From a virus (taxonomy: Duplodnaviria > Caudoviricetes): a DNA stretch of 57,163 nucleotides. The stretch lies in IMG/VR virus record IMGVR_UViG_3300020045_005021, positions 1 through 57,163 of that record. One strand, given 5' to 3'. Made by a program: the position numbers and the translations under genes. Shown here piece after piece: positions 732 to 49,298 of this stretch; the stretch's first letter is position 1, and each line of letters begins with the position of its first letter. A model generated the notes under the pieces. The model was not told where the DNA came from and made no database searches. It saw only the letters and a list, made by a program, of their open reading frames with translations.

Positions 732-3700
732 TTAATATCCTTCAATAACAAACCAACCCGTAAAATTAGTTTGCCCAGATGTTGTAAATGCCGTAGTTGT
801 ACAGTCGTACGCACCTATAGTTCCACCCTGTATTGTCGCCCATATATGCGGTACATATGTGAATGTTGTTGGCAGTGTGTATGTAACACCACCACTTAAT
901 GCATTTGATCTTATTATGACTTTTTTATAGCTACCAGTTTGAAATGGCATTGACCCTACTATTGTTCCACTAGTTGATCCGTTAATGGTTGTTTGGGATT
1001 GGTTTACAATTCCGCTACCTGAATAATTAGGAATATTTATATTACTACCAGTCATTGTTGCTGGTCCGCTTGTACCCGTTGTAGTTAGTGTTATTGGGAG
1101 TTGTACGCCTGTAAGGTTTGAGCCACTTCCATAGAACGAAGGTGCTGTAACCGATGAGCTAAACATCCCGGTACCATTCACGGCTAATTTATATGACTGA
1201 TCTGTTTGGTACCCTATTAGAGTATTTCCATTTATCATTCTAATATATTCTGAATTACCATTAATTAGCGATAATCCATCGCCTCCTGCATTACCTATTG
1301 CCAATATATCTCCCTTATTTCCAGTAAGAGGAGAGCCTATACCATCCCAATATGAAACAATTGGAAGATATAACCCACCAGATAGTCTTTTAGAGTAAAC
1401 TTTATCATCGAAAGTAAAGCTTCCAGATGTATGAAGTTTCGAGTTTGGAGAAGTAATACCTATACCAATGCTACTTCCACTATCATATAATATAGAATTT
1501 GATAATACTCCATTCCATTTTGGAATATAGTTGTTTGATAAGCTTGAAGTAAGATTATTTCCGTTTAACAAAAATCCTGTTGCGTTTACGGTTGAGATAA
1601 AAGTTGCTGCGCCTGTAGTGCCATCATAGTAGTTATTTCAAAATCCGCCATTTACGCCAAAATATAATCTACCGTCAGAAAACGCTTGTATTCTCCATTG
1701 TTTGCCATTAGTAGCTGTATTATTCAACTCTAGTATCGAACTAGTAGTTGAATTTATGGTTGTCGAACCTAGAAAAGATGGCGAATTTGTGGTTGACAAT
1801 CTTTGATTTTCTATTGGCTGAAAATCACCAACAGAACTATTAGCCGCCGTGCCAAATGTTCGACCCTCCAAAACAGTTCCGGTAGTGCTTCCTAAAGGCA
1901 AATTAAACCCTGTGTTTTTGATAATTGCGGGCTCTTTGCTATTAAATGTGTTATAGTCATTAAAAGTCAATGCGCCAGATTGAGTAAGGCTTGCGTTTTG
2001 AAGCGAAATGTTTTGTCCTGAAATAGATAACCCATTTGCTGCCGTAACCGTTGTCGGAGTGTGCAGTAGAGCAAAGTCTTGATACTTCAAATATCCATCG
2101 CTTGTAGTTGTTGCAGCGCCTAATTTCGTTTTGATACTAGTCAATGTTTCATCGCCTGTATTAGTTCCGCTTGTTGCATTAACTACGCCAACTTGTGCGG
2201 ATGTTAAATGTTGGTACAAAGACTCTCCATTTTTATCTCTTAATTGTGAATGTCTTAATGCTAGCGGGGTATTTAAGTATGATGCAGAGCCATCACCAAC
2301 TTTATAGGACAATGTTTTATTAACTGTAGTAGTTGTTGTTGCATAAACCCGACAACCTAATCTGTCTGTAGCGTCAACCGTAAAACTAGGTTGAACTGTT
2401 TCAATGATATTGTTTTGATAATCTGTATTTTCAATCGTATTAGAATATATTGTGAACATGTCGGTTTCAACACCTGTAGATGACCTCCGATATTGAATGA
2501 TTTTAAATTTACTATCGCCAACACTTGAGCTAATAATACTATTTAACGTAAACCTCCATACACCAGCATCTACGGTTGTAACTCCGACTGGTTGTTCAAA
2601 GAGATAGGTATAAATTAACACCTCGTTGTTATTGCACGTAGCCGATGCGACTGTTTCGGTCAAATCAGCCGTTCCGCTTGTTTGTTTATAAGTTCCTACA
2701 ATCGTAGAAGTTATGTTAGTAAAGTATACGTTAGAAGCATAACCTCCACTACCCATAACCATTTCAGCCCATTGTCTATTACCATTAAGCCATTTAGATT
2801 CTGGGTTGATTGGAGTGGCCGGAAGTAGTGGTTCTTTCTCCAAAAGTCCTGGCACTGTTGGTAGATCAGCAGTGCCACTCAAATCTCCAGCAAGTTTAAC
2901 CTTACCTTTTGTCGTAGTTGTAGCATCTGGAGCTCCTGAAACTACTGCATCATCAACATATGCTTTAACTGCATTTTGTGATGGATATAATATGTCACTA
3001 GTTCCAAGAGCTGTGGACGTTGACTTATTTGAAATATTTTCAGCTCCAATATCGCCAGGATGTGTTGGAACTGCAATATTTATTTTTTTTGAATTTATTA
3101 TTAAATCAACACCGTTTCTTTGCACTCCATCAATTACATTTACCTGAGCACCAGATTCAATACTATCTAATTTTGTTTTTAAAGTGTTTGTAAAATCATT
3201 TGTAGACAATCCCCTTCCAGCCTCTTTATCAACTTTCAATGCATCTTGTTGATCTACATATATAGTTGTTGCAAGTCCAGTTGTAGATGGTATTGTTGGT
3301 TTATTTAGTATTTGAGAATCTCCACTAGTTGAATTTCAATCTGAATTTACATTTTTCTCTGCATCGGAAGGAGCATGTGCTGTTTGTGAATGGTCATAAG
3401 AAATTTTACCTCTATCACCTCTATAAGAATCTGCTGATGTTTCACCCAATTGAATAGGAGTTCTTCACCCAGCGTCTTGCTCGGTATAGGATAATTTGGT
3501 AACTACTTGTCCTGGCGCTCCATCAATTGGCAATACGCCATAACCAGGATCACCCTTATCGCCTTTTAATGCATCAATTAATTCAGCACTTCCAGTTACT
3601 GGGGCTGTAGATACATCTAATTCAATCATCATGTTTACTCCATCATTAGTTGTTGGAGTTTGATAATCTGTTGGTAGTCTTTCAAATAATATGCCTGCAA

Positions 3701-3965
3701 TAACAACCTGTCTTACACCATCAGTTCCATCAAGAACTACGATTACATCTCTATAACCTCTCATTGGAAACGTATCTTCGCTAGAAAGATTCATTTTATA
3801 ATATGGAGATTCATAAGTTATTAATGGAATACCAGTATCTAGATTTCCTATTAATACTCCACCAATATAAACCAACATATTAGTATTTAATGGAAATGTC
3901 TGACCAGTCTTTAATTTAAGTCATATAGAGAAGCTATCACCGCATTTTATGCTAATTGTGCGCAT
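732..3965 (-). CDS. Tail fibre / receptor-binding-like structural protein (1077 aa reading TGA as Trp)
   Basis: ORFs 3465-3878, 1638-3239 and 732-1571 share one frame and are separated only by TGA at 3921, 3465, 3336 and 1638; ATG at 3965, TAA at 732; NVNSD[TGA]NSTSGDSQILNKP matches the phage fibre motif SDWN...ILNKP; DATTTTKGKVKLA fibre repeat; Thr/Ser/Gly-rich. Confidence 0.8.
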
Positions 3966-3989
3966 TTTATTTATTTTAAAAATTAGTAT

Positions 3990-4015
3990 TCCAGCAACCA
4001 ATCAAAGTTGCTGGA
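3990..4015 (-). terminator. Hairpin between portal and fibre genes
   Basis: TCCAGCAAC-loop-GTTGCTGGA inverted repeat just after the portal stop; no clear U-tract. Confidence 0.4.
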
Positions 4016-4021
4016 CTTATA

Positions 4022-6412
4022 TTACTTAGTTGATTTAGACTTATTAATCTTTTTGATTTCTAAATCTTTTTCTTTCAATTGATTCTGAATATTGTCTTGA
4101 TTTATTCTATGAATATGTTCTCTATTTTTTAGAGACATTTCTTCATCTAATTTTTTAATTTTTAAATCAAGTTCATCTCTAGAATAATCTTCTGGCAATT
4201 CAGTTTGATTAGACATTTCCGCAATAAGAATTCTAGTTTCATTATCACGTTGATTTAATGTATCTTCAAGTTGGATTTTTTGTTGCTCAACATCTTTACG
4301 ATACTGTATTTCTTGTTGTTGAATTTTAAGATTATCTTGAGCCTCTTTGGATTTACGCTCATTCATATCCTTTTCATCCTTGTCGATAATTCTGTGAACC
4401 TCAGCCATGGATGGTGAAGATAATACTTTCATCATTGCACCAAATGACATCATTTGATTTTGCATAGCTGCATGAGCTAATTGAAGCAGCCCTTCCTCTA
4501 ATCTTTGAGATTCATTGCTATTGTCAAGAACTAATCCATAATCACATTCAGAAAATTCATCCCCATCAATATCTGCAATTTTAGACGCTCCGTCAGACAA
4601 TATATATTGAAACTTTTTAGAACCACCTTTTAGTGCAGCCTTAGAAGTTTCTAAGAAGCATTCAAGTGCCCTCTTCTTTACATCATCATGCTTGGCAAAT
4701 AACCATTCTGTAATGTGACTTGATTGTAAATTAGATCGCTCAACACCGCCCACAGTTTCAGAAGAGGACACCTGTCCTTCTCGTTGCTTAGAAATTCCAG
4801 CAGCTTCAGACATTTCCATCTTTACAAACTCTAAGAGATTAATATGTTGTTGGATATAATTACCTTGCTCCAAATCTAGAACTCCAGAAGATTGTTGCAT
4901 CATACCAGATAATTTACCTGTAGCAGCACCGATATTTCCCTCTTTGAAACTATCAATAACTGCAATGTGCATTGTCTTAGCATAGTGTAACCACTTCTCA
5001 ACCTCCCAGCCTTTTGGAACCATAGCTAAATCAAGCTTAACCATCTTTCCTCAGTTAGCAGCTATAGCCTTATTTAAGCGGTCGTGGAGAGCATTATATA
5101 AGTAATTGTAGGGTTTCATTACATCTACTAAAGAAAATGGCTTAGTATCGTTTATATTATATACTGAACCTACAAATCCAAAGTGACATCTTGATGGATT
5201 AGATAATCTGTTGTATTGGACAACTCTTGGTCGCATGTTTACATAGATTTCTTTACCAATCTTAGTACCTTCCCAAGCTTCGTTAATCCAAAATACTTCT
5301 TCTTCCTGGCCTAGGTCTTTATCACATTTATATGTTTCTGGATAGAAGTCAAACTCTTCATCGCCAGTTTCAGCATTATATGACTTTACTTTTTTAATCT
5401 TACGTTTAGAACGCCAATATGTTCTTACAACACGAATATTACCATTATTGTCAAAGTAGTTTGTTGTAGCAGCAGAACCAGTTGTTTGAGCAAATATCGA
5501 ATAGTTATCTATAACAGAACCATATCCACCTTCGAATCCATTTATTTCATTTACATTAATAAATGCATTTCGCTCATCAATATTGGACATGCTATCACCA
5601 GAATAAACTTGTGGTAAGTTTTCTAGGTATTCACAATCTGCCTCTGTTAAGACATCGTAAAATGTATCTATAATTCTACCTGGACTTCAGAAGTCTATAT
5701 ATGTTAGAATATCAGCATCTTCAATTCTATTAGAGAATCCGCTTTTAAACGTATGGCATTTTAATGGGTTAATTCTTTCAAAAGTAGGTTCTCCTCCAAC
5801 AATGTCACATTGGTAAATCTCTTCACCTACAATCATTGCATCCATGAACCCATCGTTAAACTTATCTTTAATTGCAAGTTCTTTAATGTAATGATTAAGA
5901 ATTAAATTACCACGTTCTTCTCTAGCATCTTGCCATTCGTAAGTGTAGTAATACGACATTTTATCCATTTCAGAATTAAAAGATTCTTCATCTGGATGTT
6001 CTGCTTTGATAGCATCTTGCAAACTGCCCATTAATTGGGTCTTCTTATTTTCCTCAATTTCAGAAACAGCATTGGGGTTTGTTATAATCAAGTGTCAGTC
6101 AAACCTACGTTTACGCTCTTCTCCAGCAAGTAAGTTAAGTTTAGCCTTCATTACTGGATAATGCTGAATATTTTCTGGAACATAACTAGCGTCTACGTTG
6201 TCTGGGTTTAGAATTAATGACATATCATTAAGGTCTAAAATTCCATTAACTAGATTATAGTTTATTCTTTTGCGAATAAATGATTTACGTATGACTGAAT
6301 CTGAGTAATACACACGTCGATCGCTTCAGTCACATATTGATTTTCTTCACTCAGCACTCTTTGCTGAAAAAGACAGTTTTTGCCTTGGGAAGGAACTTAC
6401 TGGATTACTCAT
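4022..6412 (-). CDS. Portal protein, crAss-like (796 aa reading TGA as Trp)
   Basis: Four ORF fragments in one frame joined by TGA at 6347, 6326, 6095, 5687 and 5051; N-terminus MSNPVSSFPRQKLSFSAKSAE[W]RKSICD[W]; motifs RRFD[W], DF[W]SPG, WINEAWEGTKIG, AN[W]GK, GISKQREG typical of crAss-like portals; downstream of terminase. Confidence 0.9.
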
Positions 6413-7397
6413 TATTTTCTATTGTTTTATTATTATAATAATCATCCTTTTTTATAAACTTAAAACGATTATATATTATTTTTTTGTTTTTAATTGCAAT
6501 TCCTATTGTACTGGGATGTATACCATATGTTCTACTTATTTCTCTTATAGAAATAAATTCTCTTATATAATTCCCATTAATATCTAATTCGACAATTTCC
6601 ATACCAATAAGTGCCGCATTCCTTACTCTATCTAATCCTGAATCTGAAAATCAAGATCCATTATTTATGTTTTTTCTAGACATAGTATCTCTATCGGCAT
6701 TATGGATTCTTGAGTTACTTAACTTCTTTCTAGTCTCATCTGATATGTTTTTACTACATTCAGATATTTTCTTTTTTGTTTCATCGGTATGATGCCTACC
6801 GGTTGACGACAAACTTATCTTTAGTTTAGTTTCATCTGATAGTTTTTTGCCGGTATGAAATTCTTTTAATATTTTTTTATGTTCCTCTGTAACGATCCTT
6901 CCAATATTTGATTTTCTAGTAGCATCTTTTACGTGTTGTGGCATTGGTCTTCCTGTATTTGCCTTTCTTGATTTTTCATATGCAATTTCAGGAAGTCTTT
7001 TGCCCTTTAATCTATCAGACATTTTTTTCTTAGTCTCTTCACTTCTATTACTTTGAGCAAATCTCATTTTAATTAAAGTTTCTTCAGTGCATTTTCCTCC
7101 AGTACCACCAAACCTTATATTATAGCCACTGTAAACTGAGTCATATTTTTTAATGCAAAACTTCTCCATTGCATCTAAAGTAATATTCAATCTGGATCTA
7201 TTATCTGAGTTATATTGGAATAATATTTCCAATTTAAAATTTTCAAATCCATATTTAGTAAGAGCCCTATGTAGTTTTCATTGTTGAGTACATTTTAATT
7301 TTGAATAATTTCTCATTCGTATATTTAAATGTATTGTTTGACCAATATAGCATTTACCACTTGGACTTGTAAGTTTATATATATTTCCAATTAACAT
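6405..7397 (-). CDS. Free-standing GIY-YIG homing endonuclease with NUMOD3-like repeats (330 aa, 2 TGA)
   Basis: ATG at 7397, MLIGNIYKLTSPSGKCYIGQT; TGA at 7278 and 6651 in frame with ORFs 6651-7232 and 6405-6602; SEETKKKMS-type repeats; C-terminal HTH. Confidence 0.85.
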
Positions 7398-7420
7398 TTT
7401 TGCAACAATTTATAAATTTA

Positions 7421-7454
7421 TGCAAAGGTACAATTAGTATTTGGATTTACAAAA
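7421..7454 (-). promoter_or_regulatory. Bacteroidota sigma-type promoter (-33 TTTG / -7 TAnnTTTG)
   Basis: Minus strand TTTTGTAAATCCAAATACTAATTGTACCTTTGCA upstream of the GIY-YIG and portal genes. Confidence 0.75.
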
Positions 7455-7455
7455 C

Positions 7456-7491
7456 AAAAAAGTGCCTACTACCAGAAAAGTAATAGGCACT
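7456..7491 (-). terminator. Rho-independent terminator after terL
   Basis: AGTGCCTATTAC-loop-GTAGTAGGCACT followed by a T run on the minus strand. Confidence 0.7.
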
Positions 7492-7504
7492 ATATTTTAA
7501 TTTA

Positions 7505-10500
7505 TTAGAATTTTAATTTATTCCCAGTTGAAATATCTTTGCGATAATTCTTTTCAAAGAATGCATCTTTGCCAAGATATCCAACATCTCTATTTGCTCC
7601 AGCCTCCCTAGGAGATGTGTCACCAAGCAACCTTAGTTTATCTTCTCGGATAAGCATAAGCATAATGATCGCATCATGTCTATCGTAGTTTCCATCTGGA
7701 GTTCACATTGCAGTTTCTTGTAACAATCCTTTAGACCAAATCTTTTGATAGTTAAACACATTAACTACTTCTTCAACTTGCATCCCATCAATTTCTTTTA
7801 TGTTTATTTGTGGTGTTGATCTTAAGAGATAATCCCTATAACATCTTCTACCATATGGGGCTATAGAACCATAGTTTCCTGTGCCTTTACTTTTGTTGCC
7901 GTATTGCCCACCCTTAACCATCTCCTTATCTTTAAGAAATTCTAAAGTGTCTGATAGTAAATATAAGCAGTTATGTTTTGACATATAAGCAAAGAAACCT
8001 TTCTTATTATTCTCGTAGTTGCACTCTGCATTATACATAAGTAACGCTAGTCTAGCATTTTCATAAGCGTCATCGGCAAACATAGGTCTACCAGTATATT
8101 CAAATACAAGTTCATCGGTCCATAAATCATGGATAAATAAACTAAAGAGCGAAAGCGTATCTGAGGAATCGTCATCATCAGTAATGTTATCGTACAAGTT
8201 TTTTATCATGTACTTCTGGGAGTCACCTCCATACCACAGTTCCTCAATGTGGATACTTCCGTTAATTCGGACCAGCTCAGCATATATTATCATCCAAAGA
8301 TTCTTTGGATGGTGGGCACTCGTGGCGGATTATATTCTACTTTCGTAGGTTCTCCACTATGCGTTACAATGTTTAATACTTTTAAATATTAAATTATCTC
8401 GATGTTTTCTAATTACTTAGACTTTCTTCGATTTTGCCCACTTATTCAATTAGTGTTACCACTAAAGGGTGCTAAATCAACACGTCAGCCCCAGCTATAT
8501 ACCTTCCTCATGGAACATTGCCAGAGCTACTTTTAACTGGCATATGCTTTATACATATAGCGCCTTCAATTTTATTATCTTTATGTGGAAACTCCGTTAT
8601 ATATTTTAAATCATTATCAGGTTTGTATTCTACTTCACCACTTTTCGATAAACTTAATCTACCAATCCACATATCATCTGTATATTTTGGATTAAGATTA
8701 ATTTCATTTATTACATCATTAAGTTTGTCTGTCGGATATAATGAACCATCACGCTTCATTATAGCATCTTGGATTGTAAAGGCGGTCTCAGCTTTACGCC
8801 TAGTTAACTGCAATGGATCGGATGAATTATATTTAAGATTAATCCTATATTCAATCTCAGAGATTAAAGCTCCAACAACATCCGATACACCATCTTCATT
8901 ATAGTACCCTTTAGAGTTTACATATCCTGGATAGAAAAATATTGTTCGTTTCTTTCCATTAGCTCCTTTATCTCAAAAGTTTGGCAGAGAATATACATTG
9001 TAACCATCTGGGTATGAGAGCATTTCAAGTGCGCCCTGGAAGTCAGATCCTTCCGAGCCTCCAGTTCCGCAACCAATTGCTTGTCCAAATGCAATATTAC
9101 CTTCTTGAACATTTGGTATGGAAGTTTGCCATATATCTAGAAATTTAGGAAAGCTACCAAACTCTTCAAATAACATAGCCGAACTACGTTTTCCACGAAG
9201 CTTGTCACTATCATCCTTAATAGCAACTCCAAGAACCTCATTGAGAGTTCCCATTTCTAATCCAGTATCCTGATCTAAATATCCAGCCCTTCAATTTAAG
9301 TCAGACATGGATTGCTTTAGTTTCCTAGATGGAAATTGTGTGTGTTTAGCACAGTGAGTAATACCATCAATAAATTTATTCAAAGTACCATCTTTAATTA
9401 AATATTCTTTCTGATAGGCTGCAACAAGAGACTTTACTTTACTTCTAGCTAGCTCATTTTCTCCAAGAATAAAGTTCTTTGTAAGTTTAGATCCAAAGGC
9501 GTACGATTTAGAATTGTGAGTCTGTACAAAATCTCCAATAAGATATGAATGCGATTCGTTATCAACAGTTACACACTTGGATTTCTCTATGTGAGAAAAT
9601 TCTATATTTACAATTCTAGTTTTATCTCTTTTGCTTTTAGAATAACCTTTTGTGTATTCTGATATAGCATTTAATTTTCTTGGAAGTCTAAATATTCCAT
9701 CGTTTGTATATATCCATAAACAGTAACAGTCTTGACATTCAATATAAACTCCATCTTTTTTATACCCAGCTTTTTGTTTTGTGTAATTACAGTTATATCC
9801 AAGACTTCTAGCAATAAATGCAACATCCTTTATAAGCCTTTCTGACACAGAACTATATGTAGGTCTACCATTAGATAAACCTCCATCGGTATCCATTAGT
9901 CCCTTTAGAATATTTAATCTAACTTCTTTTGAATTATATTTGTATTCATCTGGAATAAATTTTCCTTCTGACTTTTGCATAAACAATCCAACAGATTTCA
10001 AATAATCAGAAACTCCATTTATATTTATAGAGTGTCCAAATTTAGTCTTTCCAGTATTGGTTTTATATGGAATATAATCTCTATATATTTCCATATCGTC
10101 TTTATGAGCAGTAAATGCAACTGTATTCACATACTCTGGATGCCGAAATGTTCCATCGCCAATTAATAATCCCATAGTATATGGGTCAATAAAAACATCT
10201 TTACTATCAAAATCTATAGACTTATTAGATGGTATAGAATAAACACACTCAAATCCATTTGGATTTCTTTCAGTAATTTTTCTAGGACGTTTATAATCTG
10301 AGATTATATCTTTTAAAGACTTAGTTTCTATTCTATCATCTTTTCATCCATGTTTATGTACATTCCATAAATGATTTTCAGACGAATAGACTTCTCTTCC
10401 ATCTTTTAATGTTATCTTATAAACATCAATTTCATCATCAAATGGTATATCTATTACAGTTGTAATATTTCCATCATCACCATATAATTTACTTCCAATG

Positions 10501-11150
10501 TTTATACTACCTCATTCTTTAAATCCAGTTGGAGTTAATACATCTTGCGAATATGGATGACTCTTCCCTCTTGAAGCTATTTCGATGCAGTGTTTTGCTC
10601 CCTGAAAGTCATCGTACATTCCACCATATCTAGCCTGATGCCAATAATGAAATCTTCAATAAACACCCTCTCATACTTCTGGAAAATCTATAATACGTTC
10701 ACCAACCTTAGTTCCTTTTTTAATTTTGGTTTGAATAATTGGAAAATAATTCAAATAAAAATACATGTCCCCAGTTATTCATTCACCATCTGATTCACGA
10801 ACTAATCCATTTCAGCATCGCTGCACTTCCCTTTTTAGTCACTGCCCAAACTCAGATTGCGGATTTGGGTTTGGCATAAGCTTTGTGTAACAACCATATT
10901 TCTGAAAGTGAATAGCTGCTTGACGAAAATAATTCATGTCAATCAATAAGTGCGGATCACACAAGTCTATTAAAATTCTACCAGACTTATCTCTTTGCAA
11001 GTCTTTAGCAAACTTTCTTTTTGGAGATATAAGGCGCTGAATAAACTCAACATTATTAATTATATCTAATAAGTCCGTTCTCGCTTCATCCTTTAAACTG
11101 CCAAGTAATTCGTCTGTTAATTGCGTTTGATAAATATTTGTTTCTATCAT
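7505..11150 (-). CDS. terL: Terminase large subunit; exons 11150-8480 and 8178-7505; intein-containing; 11 in-frame TGA (1114 aa precursor, about 764 aa mature)
   Basis: Walker A ASRGK|SKS around the intein, LRGKR...FEEFG Walker B, GTGG, nuclease motif RYIAGADVYDDD after splicing, NYENNKKG, GNYDR; TGA at 10839, 10812, 10779, 10671, 10656, 10512, 10344, 9291, 8973, 8508 and 7703. Confidence 0.92.
8179..8479 (-). mobile_element. ORF-less group I intron in terL nuclease domain
   Basis: P1 GTGTT/AGCAC with a U-G pair defining the 5' splice site after 8480; P3 GTGGGCA/TGCCCAC; P7 GCATA/TATGC; terminal G at 8179; removal restores the frame and gives GAD-V-Y-DDD. Confidence 0.85.
9513..10562 (-). 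mobile_element. Intein (350 aa) with LAGLIDADG homing endonuclease in the terL Walker A motif
   Basis: Starts SHPYSQDVLTPTG, ends VTVDNESHSYLIGDFVQTHN followed by extein Ser; LAGLIDADG blocks MGLLIGDG and LKGLMDTDG. Confidence 0.9.
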
Positions 11151-14956: not shown

Positions 14957-15028
14957 AGCAAGTAGATGGAATCGAACCACCGCTATCTGATTACAAAACA
15001 GATGCACTAACCACTATACTATACCTGC
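14957..15028 (-). tRNA. tRNA-Thr(TGT)
   Basis: GCAGGTA/TACTTGC acceptor, D-loop AGTGG, anticodon arm TCTGT-TT TGT AA-TCAGA, T-arm GGTGG TTCGATT CCATC. Confidence 0.8.
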
Positions 15029-15239
15029 AAATTGTGAGACTTATTACCTCTCACACTTCCTGCGCAAATTGCAAATTTAATTGCTGACTACATGCATTTA
15101 GTCATTTGGGAAGACCGCTACATTTAATGTCTATTAAGACAACAGAGGTTATGCGGCGCACAACACATTAAATTTAAAACAATCAAAAATGAATTAAAAG
15201 ATATACTTTCACAAGTACTTAATTATGAAACAATTATTT

Positions 15240-15318
15240 GGTCTACATATTGGAGTCGAACCAATAATTACGGATTTTTTAAGTCCCTCAGACTGCCACC
15301 AACTGAATGAATGTAGAC
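15240..15318 (-). tRNA. tRNA-Leu(TAA)-like with enlarged anticodon loop (possibly pseudo)
   Basis: GTCTACA/TGTAGAC acceptor, TTGG TTCGACT CCAA T-arm; anticodon region GGGACTTAAAAAATCC has two more A than the canonical GGGACTTAAAATCC. Confidence 0.55.
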
Positions 15319-15390
15319 TTTTAAAATTAATAAAGAACCCTCTAGTCCGTGCCCGCTTAGGTTTTTTGAGCTAAACTTTATTAATTATTG

Positions 15391-15463
15391 CATGCGCAGA
15401 AGGATTCGAACCCCCGTCGTTCTGGGTTGAAACCAGACAGTCTGACCACTGGCTTATACGCAT
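15391..15463 (-). tRNA. Opal suppressor tRNA, anticodon TCA (probably tRNA-Trp(UCA))
   Basis: ATGCGTA/TGCGCAT acceptor, G73 discriminator, anticodon arm TCTGG-TT TCA AC-CCAGA (anticodon 15428-15430), T-arm GGGGG TTCGAAT CCTTC, short variable loop. Confidence 0.92.
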
Positions 15464-15503
15464 ATGTGCAGTTGATTACGGCTCAACTAGCAAAACCTTT
15501 TAT

Positions 15504-15695
15504 TTAATTTGTTACTTCGCTTGAATATGATGCTATTTTAATTTCATCAAAAGATATATTGTCTTTAAACTTTAAAATACCACCACCTAAAAAACATTCA
15601 GTAAAATTATATTCTATTCTATTTAATTCTAGCAGAATAACTTTTTCTAACCAATTTGGATTGTCATTTTTACTTTGTTCGCAACGTTTTCTCAT
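15504..15695 (-). CDS. Hypothetical protein
   Basis: 63 aa ORF directly after a promoter. Confidence 0.4.
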   Translation of the reverse strand: MRKRCEQSKNDNPNWLEKVILLELNRIEYNFTECFLGGGILKFKDNISFDEIKIASYSSEVTN

Positions 15696-15714: not shown

Positions 15715-15748
15715 GACAAAGGTAAATATAATAATTGAATTATGCAAA
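15715..15748 (-). promoter_or_regulatory. Bacteroidota-type promoter upstream of the tRNA cluster
   Basis: Minus strand TTTGCATAATTCAATTATTATATTTACCTTTGTC. Confidence 0.7.
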
Positions 15749-15771: not shown

Positions 15772-17313
<1,542 letters not shown>

Positions 17314-18281: not shown

Positions 18282-18314
18282 TGCAAAATTACAACTAATA
18301 AATGAATATACAAA
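18282..18314 (-). promoter_or_regulatory. Bacteroidota-type promoter
   Basis: Minus strand TTTGTATATTCATTTATTAGTTGTAATTTTGCA. Confidence 0.65.
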
Positions 18315-22429: not shown

Positions 22430-22597
22430 ATGAAAGAATATATTATATTACAGCATTTAACAGCATCTCAATTAGAAGATAAAGTTATTGATAAATTAAG
22501 ACTTGGATGTTATGTTCCAATTGGAGGTGTAACAATTTCTATATCTCAGCATGGAGTTTTATTTATACAAGCAATGATATTAAAAAGATACTTATGA
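22430..22597 (+). CDS. DUF1737-like small protein
   Basis: MKEYIIL...LEDKVIDKL..G..PIGGV...FIQAM; ends in TGA overlapping the next ATG. Confidence 0.55.
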   Translation: MKEYIILQHLTASQLEDKVIDKLRLGCYVPIGGVTISISQHGVLFIQAMILKRYL

Positions 22598-22701
22598 AAT
22601 ACATATTAATATCACTATTAATAATAACTTTATCAAGTTGTTCAACAACTAAATCAACTAAATTAAATCCTTATAAAGATTTGATTGCAATAAATAAATG
22701 A
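22594..22701 (+). CDS. Small lipoprotein
   Basis: MKYILISLLIITLSSC lipobox; TGA TAG double stop. Confidence 0.55.
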   Translation: MKYILISLLIITLSSCSTTKSTKLNPYKDLIAINK

Positions 22702-22789
22702 TAGGGTAATACGTAATGGCAAAATTGATTATGTCATCCTAATAAAGTGGGTTGTATCGTTGCAGGTTTGAGTCCTGTCCCTATTACCA
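22700..22789 (+). tRNA. tRNA-like element with degenerate D and anticodon arms
   Basis: GATAGGG/CCCTATT acceptor plus ACCA, T-arm GCAGG TTTGAGT CCTGT; no canonical anticodon loop. Confidence 0.5.
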
Positions 22790-23813: not shown

Positions 23814-24166
23814 ATAAAAATGAAGCATATCAATCAATGTGTCAAGGACACAAAGTTTGTAATGAATATTATTCTCCGGAAGAATATGCATTTATCAATG
23901 ATGATGGTTTAATTGAATACGAAGATGGTTGTGTAGTTGGTGATCAATTCAGTGAAAATTGGGTTAAATATCAAGATCCAGAATGTAAATTTGAATGGAG
24001 TATTTGGAAAGATAAAAATTGGGGAAATCATGATATTGAACCAACATTTCCTATTATAGATCCTTATTTGTATACATCAAAATCAAATTACATTTCACCT
24101 ATTATTGATTATCCAAAACCATTTGTTCCGAAACATAGTCATAAACGTTCAAATAAACAAAGATGA
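23810..24166 (+). CDS. Hypothetical protein
   Basis: 118 aa; TGA stop in ATGA overlap. Confidence 0.55.
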   Translation: MNKNEAYQSMCQGHKVCNEYYSPEEYAFINDDGLIEYEDGCVVGDQFSENWVKYQDPECKFEWSIWKDKNWGNHDIEPTFPIIDPYLYTSKSNYISPIIDYPKPFVPKHSHKRSNKQR

Positions 24167-42205: not shown

Positions 42206-43001
42206 TGCATTAAATTATAAAACAGTTTACAGTTGGTCAATAAATAATAAGGCGGAAGAGGTTAGAAGAAGTGCTGCATGCTTCTCTACTTTATATGGTG
42301 AGACTTTTAGAGAAATGCAAAATAAAAAAACTAATTTTGGTAATATAAATATTAAAGTTTATTTTAGCAGAGATAGAAATCAAGATGCTGAAGATAATTA
42401 TTGCTTATTAAATGATATTGAGCTAAAAGAATATATTGAATGGATTAAAAAAATCACTAAATTCAATATTAGATTGTCCAATAAGATTAAAATAGCTGAT
42501 TCTTGTAATGATTTAAATTATAAAATGCTTTCTATAAAATTCACTAAAAGAATGCCATATGAAATCAAATTAATCTGTGCTTTAGTTAGAAATCTTTATG
42601 AATGTCCGTATAATATAATGGTCAAAACTGCATTTTTATTGAAAAATCATGAAGAATATGCAAATTTAGATTTTACTGAAAGACTTTGTATTGCAATAAA
42701 TTCTATAGCTGGATATAATACTGGGCATTCTACATTTCAATATGAAGGAGTAGATTTTTATAATGATAAATCATTAAGAAATAGATATTGCAAAGCTGCT
42801 AGAACTGAAATGAATGTAAATGGATTCATGTTGAAAAATAATAGATTAGTCTATGATAGAAATTACTTTGATAGTCATGATCGAGATGAAGATGATGAAG
42901 ATATTACAATATTTGATTCATTGGAAGAAGATTATATTTCAGATGAATACATGAAAATACTACAGAAAAACTATAAAATAATGAAAAATAACAATGGATA
43001 A
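42195..43001 (+). CDS. Hypothetical protein within the amidoligase cluster
   Basis: 268 aa, overlaps both neighbours. Confidence 0.6.
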   Translation: MVINALNYKTVYSWSINNKAEEVRRSAACFSTLYGETFREMQNKKTNFGNINIKVYFSRDRNQDAEDNYCLLNDIELKEYIEWIKKITKFNIRLSNKIKIADSCNDLNYKMLSIKFTKRMPYEIKLICALVRNLYECPYNIMVKTAFLLKNHEEYANLDFTERLCIAINSIAGYNTGHSTFQYEGVDFYNDKSLRNRYCKAARTEMNVNGFMLKNNRLVYDRNYFDSHDRDEDDEDITIFDSLEEDYISDEYMKILQKNYKIMKNNNG

Positions 43002-43884
43002 TAAATTAATAAAAGTATATGTAGTTGGTGGAGATACTTCTTATACAAATTTATTCTTAGATAAGATTGAGATTGTGTCAGAAATTAAAGATGCTAATGT
43101 AGTACTCTTTACCGGTGGAGAGGATGTCTATCCTGGAAACTATGGAGAGGAAGTTGGTAAATATACTAGCTACAATAGGACTAGAGATAAATTTGAAACT
43201 TCTGAATTTCTTAAAGCAAGAGATTTAGGTAAGTTTCTATTAGGCATATGCAGAGGAAGTCAACTTATAACTACTTTATCTGGTGGAGGGTTAGTGCAGC
43301 ATGTATCTGGCCATGGAATATCTGGTACTCATAAAATTCATTTAATAAATGAAAAAGTTGATATAGATATTACAAGCACTCATCATCAAATGATGTGGCC
43401 TTTCTGGTTAGATAAATCAGAATATACAATATTAGCAAAAGCTAAAGACAATTTATCTTCAACTTATTTAAATGGAGATGATTGCGAAAAGAATTTGCCA
43501 GTAGATTTTGTAGAGCCAGAAATAGTCTATTATAAAAAGACTAATGCTTTGTGTATTCAAGGTCATCCTGAATATATGCCAAAAGATTCTAGTGCTGTAA
43601 AATATATAAACGTTCTTATCAGAGAGTATTTGGAAGATACAGTAGAGATTCCATATAAAGACTTAGATTTAGCTAAAGCACCTAATGTGGATGATGGAGT
43701 TTTAAGACAAATAAACAACATAAATATTCAAAGAGTTGAATTGAATGACATAGATTGGAATGCTCAAAGAGTTCGTTTAAATGATGCTTTTGCAAATGCT
43801 GTAAATAATATTCAAGTTGCACCACAAAGACAAAGAGTTCGTAGAGAAATTGATCATTTAATAGAACCAGATGATTTCTTTTGA
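42994..43884 (+). CDS. Class I glutamine amidotransferase / peptidase C26-like
   Basis: FTGGEDV, GICRG nucleophile, STHHQ, QGHPE; TGA TAA double stop. Confidence 0.9.
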   Translation: MDNKLIKVYVVGGDTSYTNLFLDKIEIVSEIKDANVVLFTGGEDVYPGNYGEEVGKYTSYNRTRDKFETSEFLKARDLGKFLLGICRGSQLITTLSGGGLVQHVSGHGISGTHKIHLINEKVDIDITSTHHQMMWPFWLDKSEYTILAKAKDNLSSTYLNGDDCEKNLPVDFVEPEIVYYKKTNALCIQGHPEYMPKDSSAVKYINVLIREYLEDTVEIPYKDLDLAKAPNVDDGVLRQINNINIQRVELNDIDWNAQRVRLNDAFANAVNNIQVAPQRQRVRREIDHLIEPDDFF

Positions 43885-43920
43885 TAATTATAGTGTAAAA
43901 TAATAACAAAATTTTAAAAT

Positions 43921-49031: not shown

Positions 49032-49298
49032 ATGAAACAAATTGAAAAATTAAAACAATTATCAAAATCAGTCTTAAATGATAAAGATTACAGTCTAATC
49101 TTAAAATTCATTAGAGACCATGATTTTGATAATATTTCAGACATAGTAAGGTCTGAAACGATTAAAGAATATAGATTATGTGAACCAGAGAATATGACTG
49201 AAAGATATTGTAAATTGCAAGAAATTAGTTACTTATTAATTGGTTTAGATATAAGTGATACTTATATAGAAAGATGTATAAATTATGATGAGGAATAA
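49032..49298 (+). CDS. Hypothetical protein
   Basis: 88 aa ORF. Confidence 0.5.
   Translation: MKQIEKLKQLSKSVLNDKDYSLILKFIRDHDFDNISDIVRSETIKEYRLCEPENMTERYCKLQEISYLLIGLDISDTYIERCINYDEE

Follow-up and report, generated by a model that had tools for sequence, protein, structure and literature searches.

The 57,163-nt stretch of crAss-like phage DNA analyzed here (hereafter the window, meaning that stretch at its full length) carries on its minus strand, at positions 15391 to 15463, a 73-nt tRNA with the anticodon UCA. From its fold and from what aligns with in-frame TGA codons, we consider it very probable (about 85%) that this is a phage-encoded opal suppressor tRNA of tryptophan type that serves a block of recoded late genes. 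Close relatives hold different UCA tRNAs at the same site, some of them with a second, tRNA-Trp-like hairpin in the variable region.

The window is one linear contig and comprises a whole IMG/VR record (57,163 bp, 29.9% G+C), the completeness of which is estimated by CheckV at 56%. Its portal protein, its terminase (TerL) and its gene order identify it as a crAss-like phage related to the Steigviridae. The portal matches PHROG 6547 and is 55-60% identical to Steigviridae crAss-like portals, among them those of isolates on Bacteroides thetaiotaomicron, B. cellulosilyticus and B. intestinalis, and the order GroEL, small genes, TerL, portal is that of phage cr108_1. ORFs of the plus strand include helicase, primase, exonuclease and amidotransferase/amidoligase-type genes. 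A GroEL-like chaperonin (15772-17313, minus strand), syntenic with cr108_1, lies directly upstream of the tRNA locus. As close relatives we compared three IMG/VR genomes, L007, L008 and L009, in which GroEL is 78-83% and the portal 90-95% identical to that of the window; all three are recoded in the same genes.

Run on the window, ARAGORN recovered a tca-anticodon tRNA at 15390-15463 of the minus strand and labelled it 'SeC', a label given because of the anticodon alone. The Rfam tRNA model RF00005 matched 15463-15391 over its full length (model positions 1-71), scoring 53.5 bits where the gathering score is 29 (E = 9.6e-9 with the whole window as search space). Sequence and Rfam structure line together define a 7-bp acceptor stem that begins with A1-U72 and includes one U6-G67 pair, the discriminator G73, a 4-bp D stem with one C-A mismatch, a 5-bp anticodon stem bearing the loop UU-UCA-AC, a variable loop of 5 nt and a 5-bp T stem with two G-U pairs; the gene does not encode the CCA end. 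The cloverleaf that a first-pass annotation had read from the letters, with anticodon TCA, A1-U72, G73 and a short variable loop, is thereby confirmed. Searches with the tRNA sequence found little: blastn of the tRNA region against GenBank phages returned seven records, all generic T-arm matches and none with at least 80% coverage, a long exact pattern from the tRNA had no match in IMG/VR, and BLAST against five bacterial genomes produced uninformative matches of 14-26 nt. A second phage tRNA, tRNA-Thr (UGU), was detected by ARAGORN and Rfam at about 14957-15028 on the same strand.

When TGA is read as sense, ORFs are joined only at 732-11150 of the minus strand, where fragments fuse into five late ORFs with 22 in-frame TGA and 23 TGG in 3369 codons. 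The tRNA does lie upstream of the recoded genes (11150-732) and on their strand, as had been noted. In the direction of transcription, the recoded ORFs encode the N-terminal and middle part of TerL (8472-11150; 10 TGA; an intein at residues 197-546; recognized by translation, PHROG 6681 and alignments), the C-terminal part of TerL (7505-8293; 1 TGA; profile match and alignment), a GIY-YIG homing endonuclease (6405-7397; 2 TGA; translation and profile match), the portal protein (4022-6412; 5 TGA, 4 of them at invariant Trp positions; profile match and alignment) and a tail-fibre-like structural protein (732-4001; 4 TGA; translation and profile match). The base that follows is A in 13 of 22 cases for TGA and in 8 of 23 for TGG, a sample too small to call.

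TerL is interrupted in two ways. The intein, of 350 residues (9513-10560, minus strand), has 2 TGA of its own; L008 and L009 lack it, and L007 has an intein-sized insert. Further on, homology breaks at the residue matching position 541 of the L008 protein and resumes in another frame at position 553, that is, at 8146 in the window, past an insert of ~300 nt (8147-8480, minus strand) that may be an intron or mark a true split of the gene; Rfam recognized no intron and no other family in this insert (8050-8600). In IAS virus (L003, NC_049978.1), a published Steigviridae phage, the annotated TerL CDS contains 2 in-frame TGA and the portal CDS 1.

Elsewhere in the window, reading TGA as sense introduces no internal TGA into any ORF of 100 aa or more; the only changes are three marginal ones, at the stop at 24166, at the TGA-TAA tandem at 43884 and in an ORF lengthened at its 5' end at 49274. 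Under the standard code, TGA is the stop codon of 7 of the 71 plus-strand ORFs that are 50 aa or longer. Because the plus-strand replication genes avoid in-frame TGA and a few apparently stop at it, we take the code change to be confined to the late block; within this one genome, TGA apparently ends some early ORFs and is a sense codon in late ones. Two plus-strand ORFs have tandem stops: in the amidotransferase-like ORF at 42994-43884 the TGA stop is immediately followed by TAA, and in the ORF at 22507-22701 by TAG. These arrangements (42994-43887 and 22507-22704) look as if they guarded against read-through by the phage's own suppressor.

In the mechanism that we propose, host RNA polymerase would transcribe the tRNA from a Bacteroidota-type promoter, the tRNA would be cut from the transcript and provided with its CCA end by the host, and the host tryptophanyl-tRNA synthetase (TrpRS) would charge it with Trp by way of A1-U72, G73 and C35-A36. 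The UCA anticodon would pair with UGA, and probably with UGG too, in competition with host RF2, and the 22 in-frame UGA of the terminase, homing endonuclease, portal and tail-fibre genes would be read as Trp. It had been stated that the window holds no release factor or TrpRS gene, and a six-frame domain search at E <= 1 bears this out for the RF-1, PCRF and tRNA-synt_1b domains in a record that is 56% complete. With no TrpRS domain in 57 kb, the phage would have to rely on the TrpRS of its host; since 44% of the genome is missing, the absence of both genes is a result for the window rather than for the whole phage, and the missing part may still hold a gene for a TrpRS, a release factor or a further tRNA.

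The motif TTTG-N20-TAnnTTTG, which we take to be the Bacteroidota promoter consensus, occurs three times in the window, against 3.09 expected. All three copies (7423-7453, 15717-15748 and 18284-18314) belong to the minus strand and fall in gaps that immediately precede genes of that strand; none serves the plus-strand replication genes. A scan for the sigma-70 consensus found matches at or below shuffled expectation. The copy at the tRNA locus, a pattern match, gains weight from its position and its conservation in all three relatives, not from the count: both boxes are invariant in the window and L007-L009, and adjacent bases vary. Of the host-type promoter proposed upstream of the tRNA, the conserved motif at 15748-15717 on the strand of the tRNA can be upheld, while its frequency in the window is at chance level. 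Between the motif and the tRNA lies a 63-codon ORF (15504-15695, minus strand), conserved in the alignment with L007-L009, and directly upstream of the tRNA a conserved hairpin of 6-8 bp (15470-15488, minus strand) with one compensatory pair change relative to these genomes.

The first-pass annotation held that accumulation of the tRNA switches on late-gene translation against RF2. We treat such a timed switch as a hypothesis, and the predicted signals favor co-transcription with TerL. Pattern scans located a strong terminator-like hairpin after TerL, with a 13-bp stem and a T run (7461-7491, minus strand), and a second strong one at 18379-18352; each is followed by one promoter motif, and together they bracket GroEL, the tRNAs and TerL. 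Only weak terminator-like sites were found by the same scan between the tRNA and TerL, and because no strong one separates them the two may share a transcript; the arrangement suggests one predicted transcription unit ending at 7461-7491. The tRNA could then be a suppressor without being a timer, simply accompanying the late genes on a transcript shared with the first of the recoded ones, or its main benefit could be damage to the host through UGA read-through, an idea that is raised for host UGA stops in the available parts of two papers (PMC7886860, PMC12386605). We regard this alternative as a serious one, if the less probable: the weak sites before TerL and the strong ones around the unit speak for it, but the terminator evidence consists of pattern scans, TGA is restricted to late genes, as the timing model of Borges et al. 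predicts, and the several early ORFs that end in TGA, two with an immediate back-up stop, fit a code that changes during infection.

A suppressor role for the tRNA draws further support from the site itself, which holds a tca tRNA in all three close relatives. L009 has another short tRNA with A1-U72 and G73; in L007 and L008 the tRNA is a UCA tRNA of 94 nt. In pairwise comparison the tRNA of the window is 0.55-0.60 identical to those of the three relatives, and the tRNAs of L007 and L008 are 0.71 identical to each other; the corresponding values are 0.67-0.91 for the upstream block and 0.71-0.95 for the downstream 200-nt noncoding block. Alignment of the window and L009 tRNAs with MAFFT put the anticodon out of register. 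Judged by these sequences, the UCA tRNAs at the site cannot be treated as simple orthologs. Three wastewater runs yielded short contigs in which the module 15390-15487 is found again with 1-2 differences, between flanks that both run into unlike sequence; this fits module exchange, but such contigs break at any variant. We tentatively regard the site downstream of GroEL as a slot for swappable suppressors, in which the long tRNAs of sister phages would satisfy the synthetase with a decoy anticodon arm, and we rate the odds of this proposal a little below even.

Two further elements are found downstream of the UCA tRNA. The first, at 15240-15318 of the minus strand (about 1795-1876 in L009), resembles a tRNA: it has a good T arm and an acceptor-like stem of 8 bp, but its anticodon stem is decayed, with the loop CUUAAAAAA, and neither ARAGORN nor Rfam calls it. 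Only the two genomes with a short UCA tRNA have this element, which in them separates that tRNA from the conserved block. The noncoding 200-nt block (about 15034-15233, minus strand) is 92-95% identical between the window, L007 and L009, more conserved than the adjoining ORF and tRNA, and is possibly a structured RNA; Rfam found no other family in the tRNA neighborhood including this block.

Divergence at the slot also invites the view that the tRNA is a passenger or is decaying, and that UGA is read by the host tRNA-Trp as a near-cognate or by a factor encoded in the missing 44%. At 55-60% identity to relatives, where the flanks reach 67-95%, the tRNA is indeed the least conserved segment of the locus; 70 nt downstream of it there is a decayed tRNA-like element, and the genome is incomplete. 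We nevertheless find this view improbable, as a UCA tRNA has been kept at the site in all four genomes despite replaced sequence, the cloverleaf is intact, and 22 TGA in essential genes need efficient decoding.

That UGA would be read as Trp is supported by alignments in which every TGA was entered as X, so that the alignment could not be biased towards Trp. Among standard-code relatives, Trp is the commonest residue at 10 of the 14 alignable TGA; at the other four, F, Y or L predominates. Four of the five TGA in the portal fall in columns with Trp in all six standard-code relatives, and the fifth in a column where all six have Phe. In TerL, Trp is commonest at six of the nine extein TGA, the others falling in an L/W, a Y/F and a mixed column; the two TGA inside the intein are without counterpart in relatives. 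The four close genomes (window and L007-L009), with portals 90-95% identical, provide 18 columns in which some members have TGA where others have a sense codon. In 15 of these columns no sense residue but Trp occurs; of the remaining three, one has Trp and Tyr, one Tyr, and one Arg/Ala (column 663, where the TGA sits in a relative). TGA and TGG interchange among these genomes, and together with the 10 of 14 positions this bears out Trp as the residue at UGA. No TGA in the alignments of portal, TerL and relatives pointed to Gly, Cys or Ser; the tRNA-Gly(UCA) of code 25 was considered and rejected, as no TGA aligns with Gly.

The tRNA itself has features that would suit TrpRS. An A1-U72 first pair and G73 belong to the identity set of bacterial tRNA-Trp, according to the part of the literature source available to us (PMC9976931). 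Among all 65 tRNAs of two Bacteroidota genomes, A1 and G73 occur together only in the two tRNA-Trp, both of which carry A1-U72 and G73, and in three tRNA-Ser with long arms, so the combination is Trp-specific only among tRNAs with a short variable loop. The earlier designation of A1-U72 and G73 as TrpRS identity elements needs this qualification, both being present in the window tRNA and common to long-arm Bacteroidota tRNA-Ser. All four distinct short UCA tRNAs (window, L009, L246 and L249) have A1-U72 and G73. The 17-nt anticodon arm, searched for with either C or U at position 34, had 98 matches in 185,579 species genomes. Only one of them lies inside a tRNA, a bacterial tRNA-Trp(CCA) whose anticodon arm differs at position 34 alone. 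Global identity to the 65 Bacteroidota tRNAs did not single out Trp: the two tRNA-Trp rank 12 and 14 at 0.66, and a tRNA-Val is at the top with 0.70. The anticodon of the window tRNA is UCA, not CCA as in bacterial tRNA-Trp; C34 is itself a Trp identity element, and because it is U here charging may be inefficient.

This change at position 34, and the occurrence of A1-U72 with G73 in some Bacteroidota tRNA-Ser, would leave room for charging with another amino acid (Ser, Gly, Arg or Cys) and a corresponding reading of UGA; in addition, tRNAscan-SE failed to separate Trp from Arg for a UCA tRNA of Zeta crAss-like phages, as reported in the accessible part of PMC12386605. We consider such charging very unlikely, and slightly more so than a passenger tRNA. 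The short variable loop excludes the size determinant of SerRS (PMC9976931, in part), all 13 tRNA-UCA tested in a preprint available to us in part inserted Trp (bioRxiv 10.1101/2025.10.30.685624), and in the phage genes TGA stands where Trp is invariant and is exchanged for TGG between close relatives. Bacterial tRNA-Sec has 8/5 acceptor/T stems, a 6-bp D stem and a long variable arm. That the window tRNA is a tRNA-Sec, as labelled by ARAGORN, can practically be dismissed: it resembles selC in its UCA anticodon and G73 but has the ordinary non-Sec shape, with 7/5 stems, a 4-bp D stem and a 5-nt variable loop (the short loop having already been held against tRNA-Sec), within the Rfam clan the general tRNA model is its best match, and TGA aligns with Trp, not Cys.

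The long UCA tRNAs of the relatives are of a different build. Those of L007 (3997-4090) and L008 (9104-9197), of 94 nt each, and that of a further genome (L186, 11110-11202) have a second hairpin; the 94-nt tRNAs fold by themselves into five arms, with this hairpin between the UCA anticodon arm and the T arm. Its loop is UUCCAAC in all three, on stems that differ, and the UCCAA loop resembles the anticodon loop of tRNA-Trp. The tRNA of the window was considered as a member of this two-headed class and rejected: with 73 nt, a 5-nt variable loop and no second hairpin, it is a plain form.

We scanned IMG/VR with a pattern that fixed only the anticodon loop, the T loop and a long spacer and left UCCAA unspecified. 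The scan returned 79 segments, 32 of them with a tRNA, including 25 distinct tca tRNAs of 93-100 nt; the further long UCA tRNAs come from 23 more loci (L294-L369). UCCAA is present in the spacer of 25 of 25 and, by RNAfold, in a hairpin loop in 22 of 25. For 28 distinct long UCA sequences RNAalifold predicted the second helix unprompted, with UCCAA invariant, and four pairs of this helix are kept through two-sided changes in 16, 14, 11 and 6 of the 28 sequences; five of the 28 were not counted for loop conservation, because they had been found with a pattern that requires the loop. The long UCA tRNAs start with A in 25 of 28 cases and have a G discriminator in 27 of 28.

In an amber scan set up in the same way, which returned 110 segments, we found 53 distinct cta tRNAs, 88-98 nt long (loci L370-L472). 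Their spacers contain U-[C/U]UG-A in 37 of 53 and CUG or UUG in 51 of 53; CUG and UUG are the glutamine anticodons. Gln-type tRNAs start with U, and so do 32 of the 53. As a cross-control, UCCAA was found in the spacers of 25/25 UCA and 0/53 CUA tRNAs, and the Gln-type motif in 0/25 and 37/53, respectively. When the variable regions of the CUA tRNAs were folded in isolation with RNAfold, the Gln-like motif fell in a hairpin loop in 12 of 37, so the hairpin claim is weaker for this set than for the UCA set (22/25).

We infer from these patterns that the second hairpin may offer the synthetase its cognate anticodon, leaving the first to read the stop codon; amber suppressors of other phages would follow the same plan with a Gln anticodon (CUG or UUG). 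Once the first hairpin is taken out, tRNA-Trp is the closest of the 65 Bacteroidota tRNAs for 15 of the 28 long UCA tRNAs, and those of L007, L008 and L274 are still closest to tRNA-Ser; in one long UCA member the 3' 58% matches ordinary mycobacteriophage tRNA-Trp genes. Read in this way, the two-headed design would have arisen on at least two scaffolds, one Ser-like and one Trp-like. The tRNAs of L007, L008 and L186 carry C2-G71 and G73, which in E. coli are antideterminants against SerRS and against LeuRS/TyrRS (PMC9976931, in the part available). In L007 and L008 TGA falls at Trp positions as in the window, but their contigs are short and another tRNA may lie elsewhere in these phages; around the other long UCA loci a crude test of stop-free-frame gain had a mixed outcome, many loci being short or standard-code.

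Our search of the main texts of open papers and bioRxiv preprints found no published description of a two-headed suppressor. In GenBank phages, none of 132 records reached at least 80% coverage of one full-length long UCA tRNA, and another had no match. If TrpRS or GlnRS is indeed recruited by the second hairpin, this hairpin would be nature's way round the main obstacle to making suppressor tRNAs, the loss of the anticodon as identity element, would help explain why many recoded phages seem to be without a detectable suppressor and would give tRNA engineers a new design principle; the two-headed relatives could then matter more than the plain tRNA of the window.

Among cellular systems, Mycoplasma and Spiroplasma (code 4) have a tRNA-Trp(UCA) in wholly recoded genomes without RF2. 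The window tRNA is like theirs in combining Trp identity with a U34 that reads UGA, and unlike them in that a virus would impose this reading on a standard-code cell and for one gene block only. Closer precedents are found in phages. Borges et al. (preprint 10.1101/2021.08.26.457843), in the part available to us, propose that standard-code early genes make the suppressor tRNA and that recoded structural and lysis genes come after, and describe in Jade phages a 'code change module' of tRNA(UCA), TrpRS and RF1 upstream of lysis genes. The locus studied here shares with that module a standard-code suppressor tRNA directly upstream of a TGA-containing late block and the same proposed logic of late-gene control, and differs from it in that the available 57 kb contain no TrpRS or RF1 domain and in the phylum of the host, which is Firmicutes for the Jade phages and presumably Bacteroidota for ours. 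The tRNA-UCA of the 2025 preprint (10.1101/2025.10.30.685624), drawn from metagenomes and assayed in E. coli extract, are like that of the window in the UCA anticodon and G73; as far as the accessible text goes, they inserted Trp there with an efficiency of suppression that depends on RF2 strength, in a host system that differs.

Most similar are the 243 crAss-like phages of Yutin et al. 2021 (PMC7886860, seen in part), in which TAG is read as Gln or TGA as Trp, mostly in late genes, and many of which encode suppressor tRNAs; their recoded TerL genes also have inteins. Like these, the window belongs to the Crassvirales, uses TGA for Trp mostly in late genes (TerL, portal), has a phage tRNA complementary to the stop codon and has inteins and inserts in the same recoded TerL. 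Unlike the named Steigviridae, it has a portal only about 60% identical to theirs, in a partial genome of 30% G+C. The window tRNA is thus a further member of the kind described by Yutin et al. and Borges et al., its lineage may already be among the 243 genomes, and the late-gene switch of the first-pass annotation is the published model. The annotation of the contig is corrected to code 4 for the late block and to a suppressor tRNA rather than a tRNA-Sec. To the published phages it adds one more case from Bacteroidota in which a phage would impose a second genetic code on its host, and the early TGA stops of the same genome, together with the predicted unit shared with the first recoded gene, bear on the published timing model.
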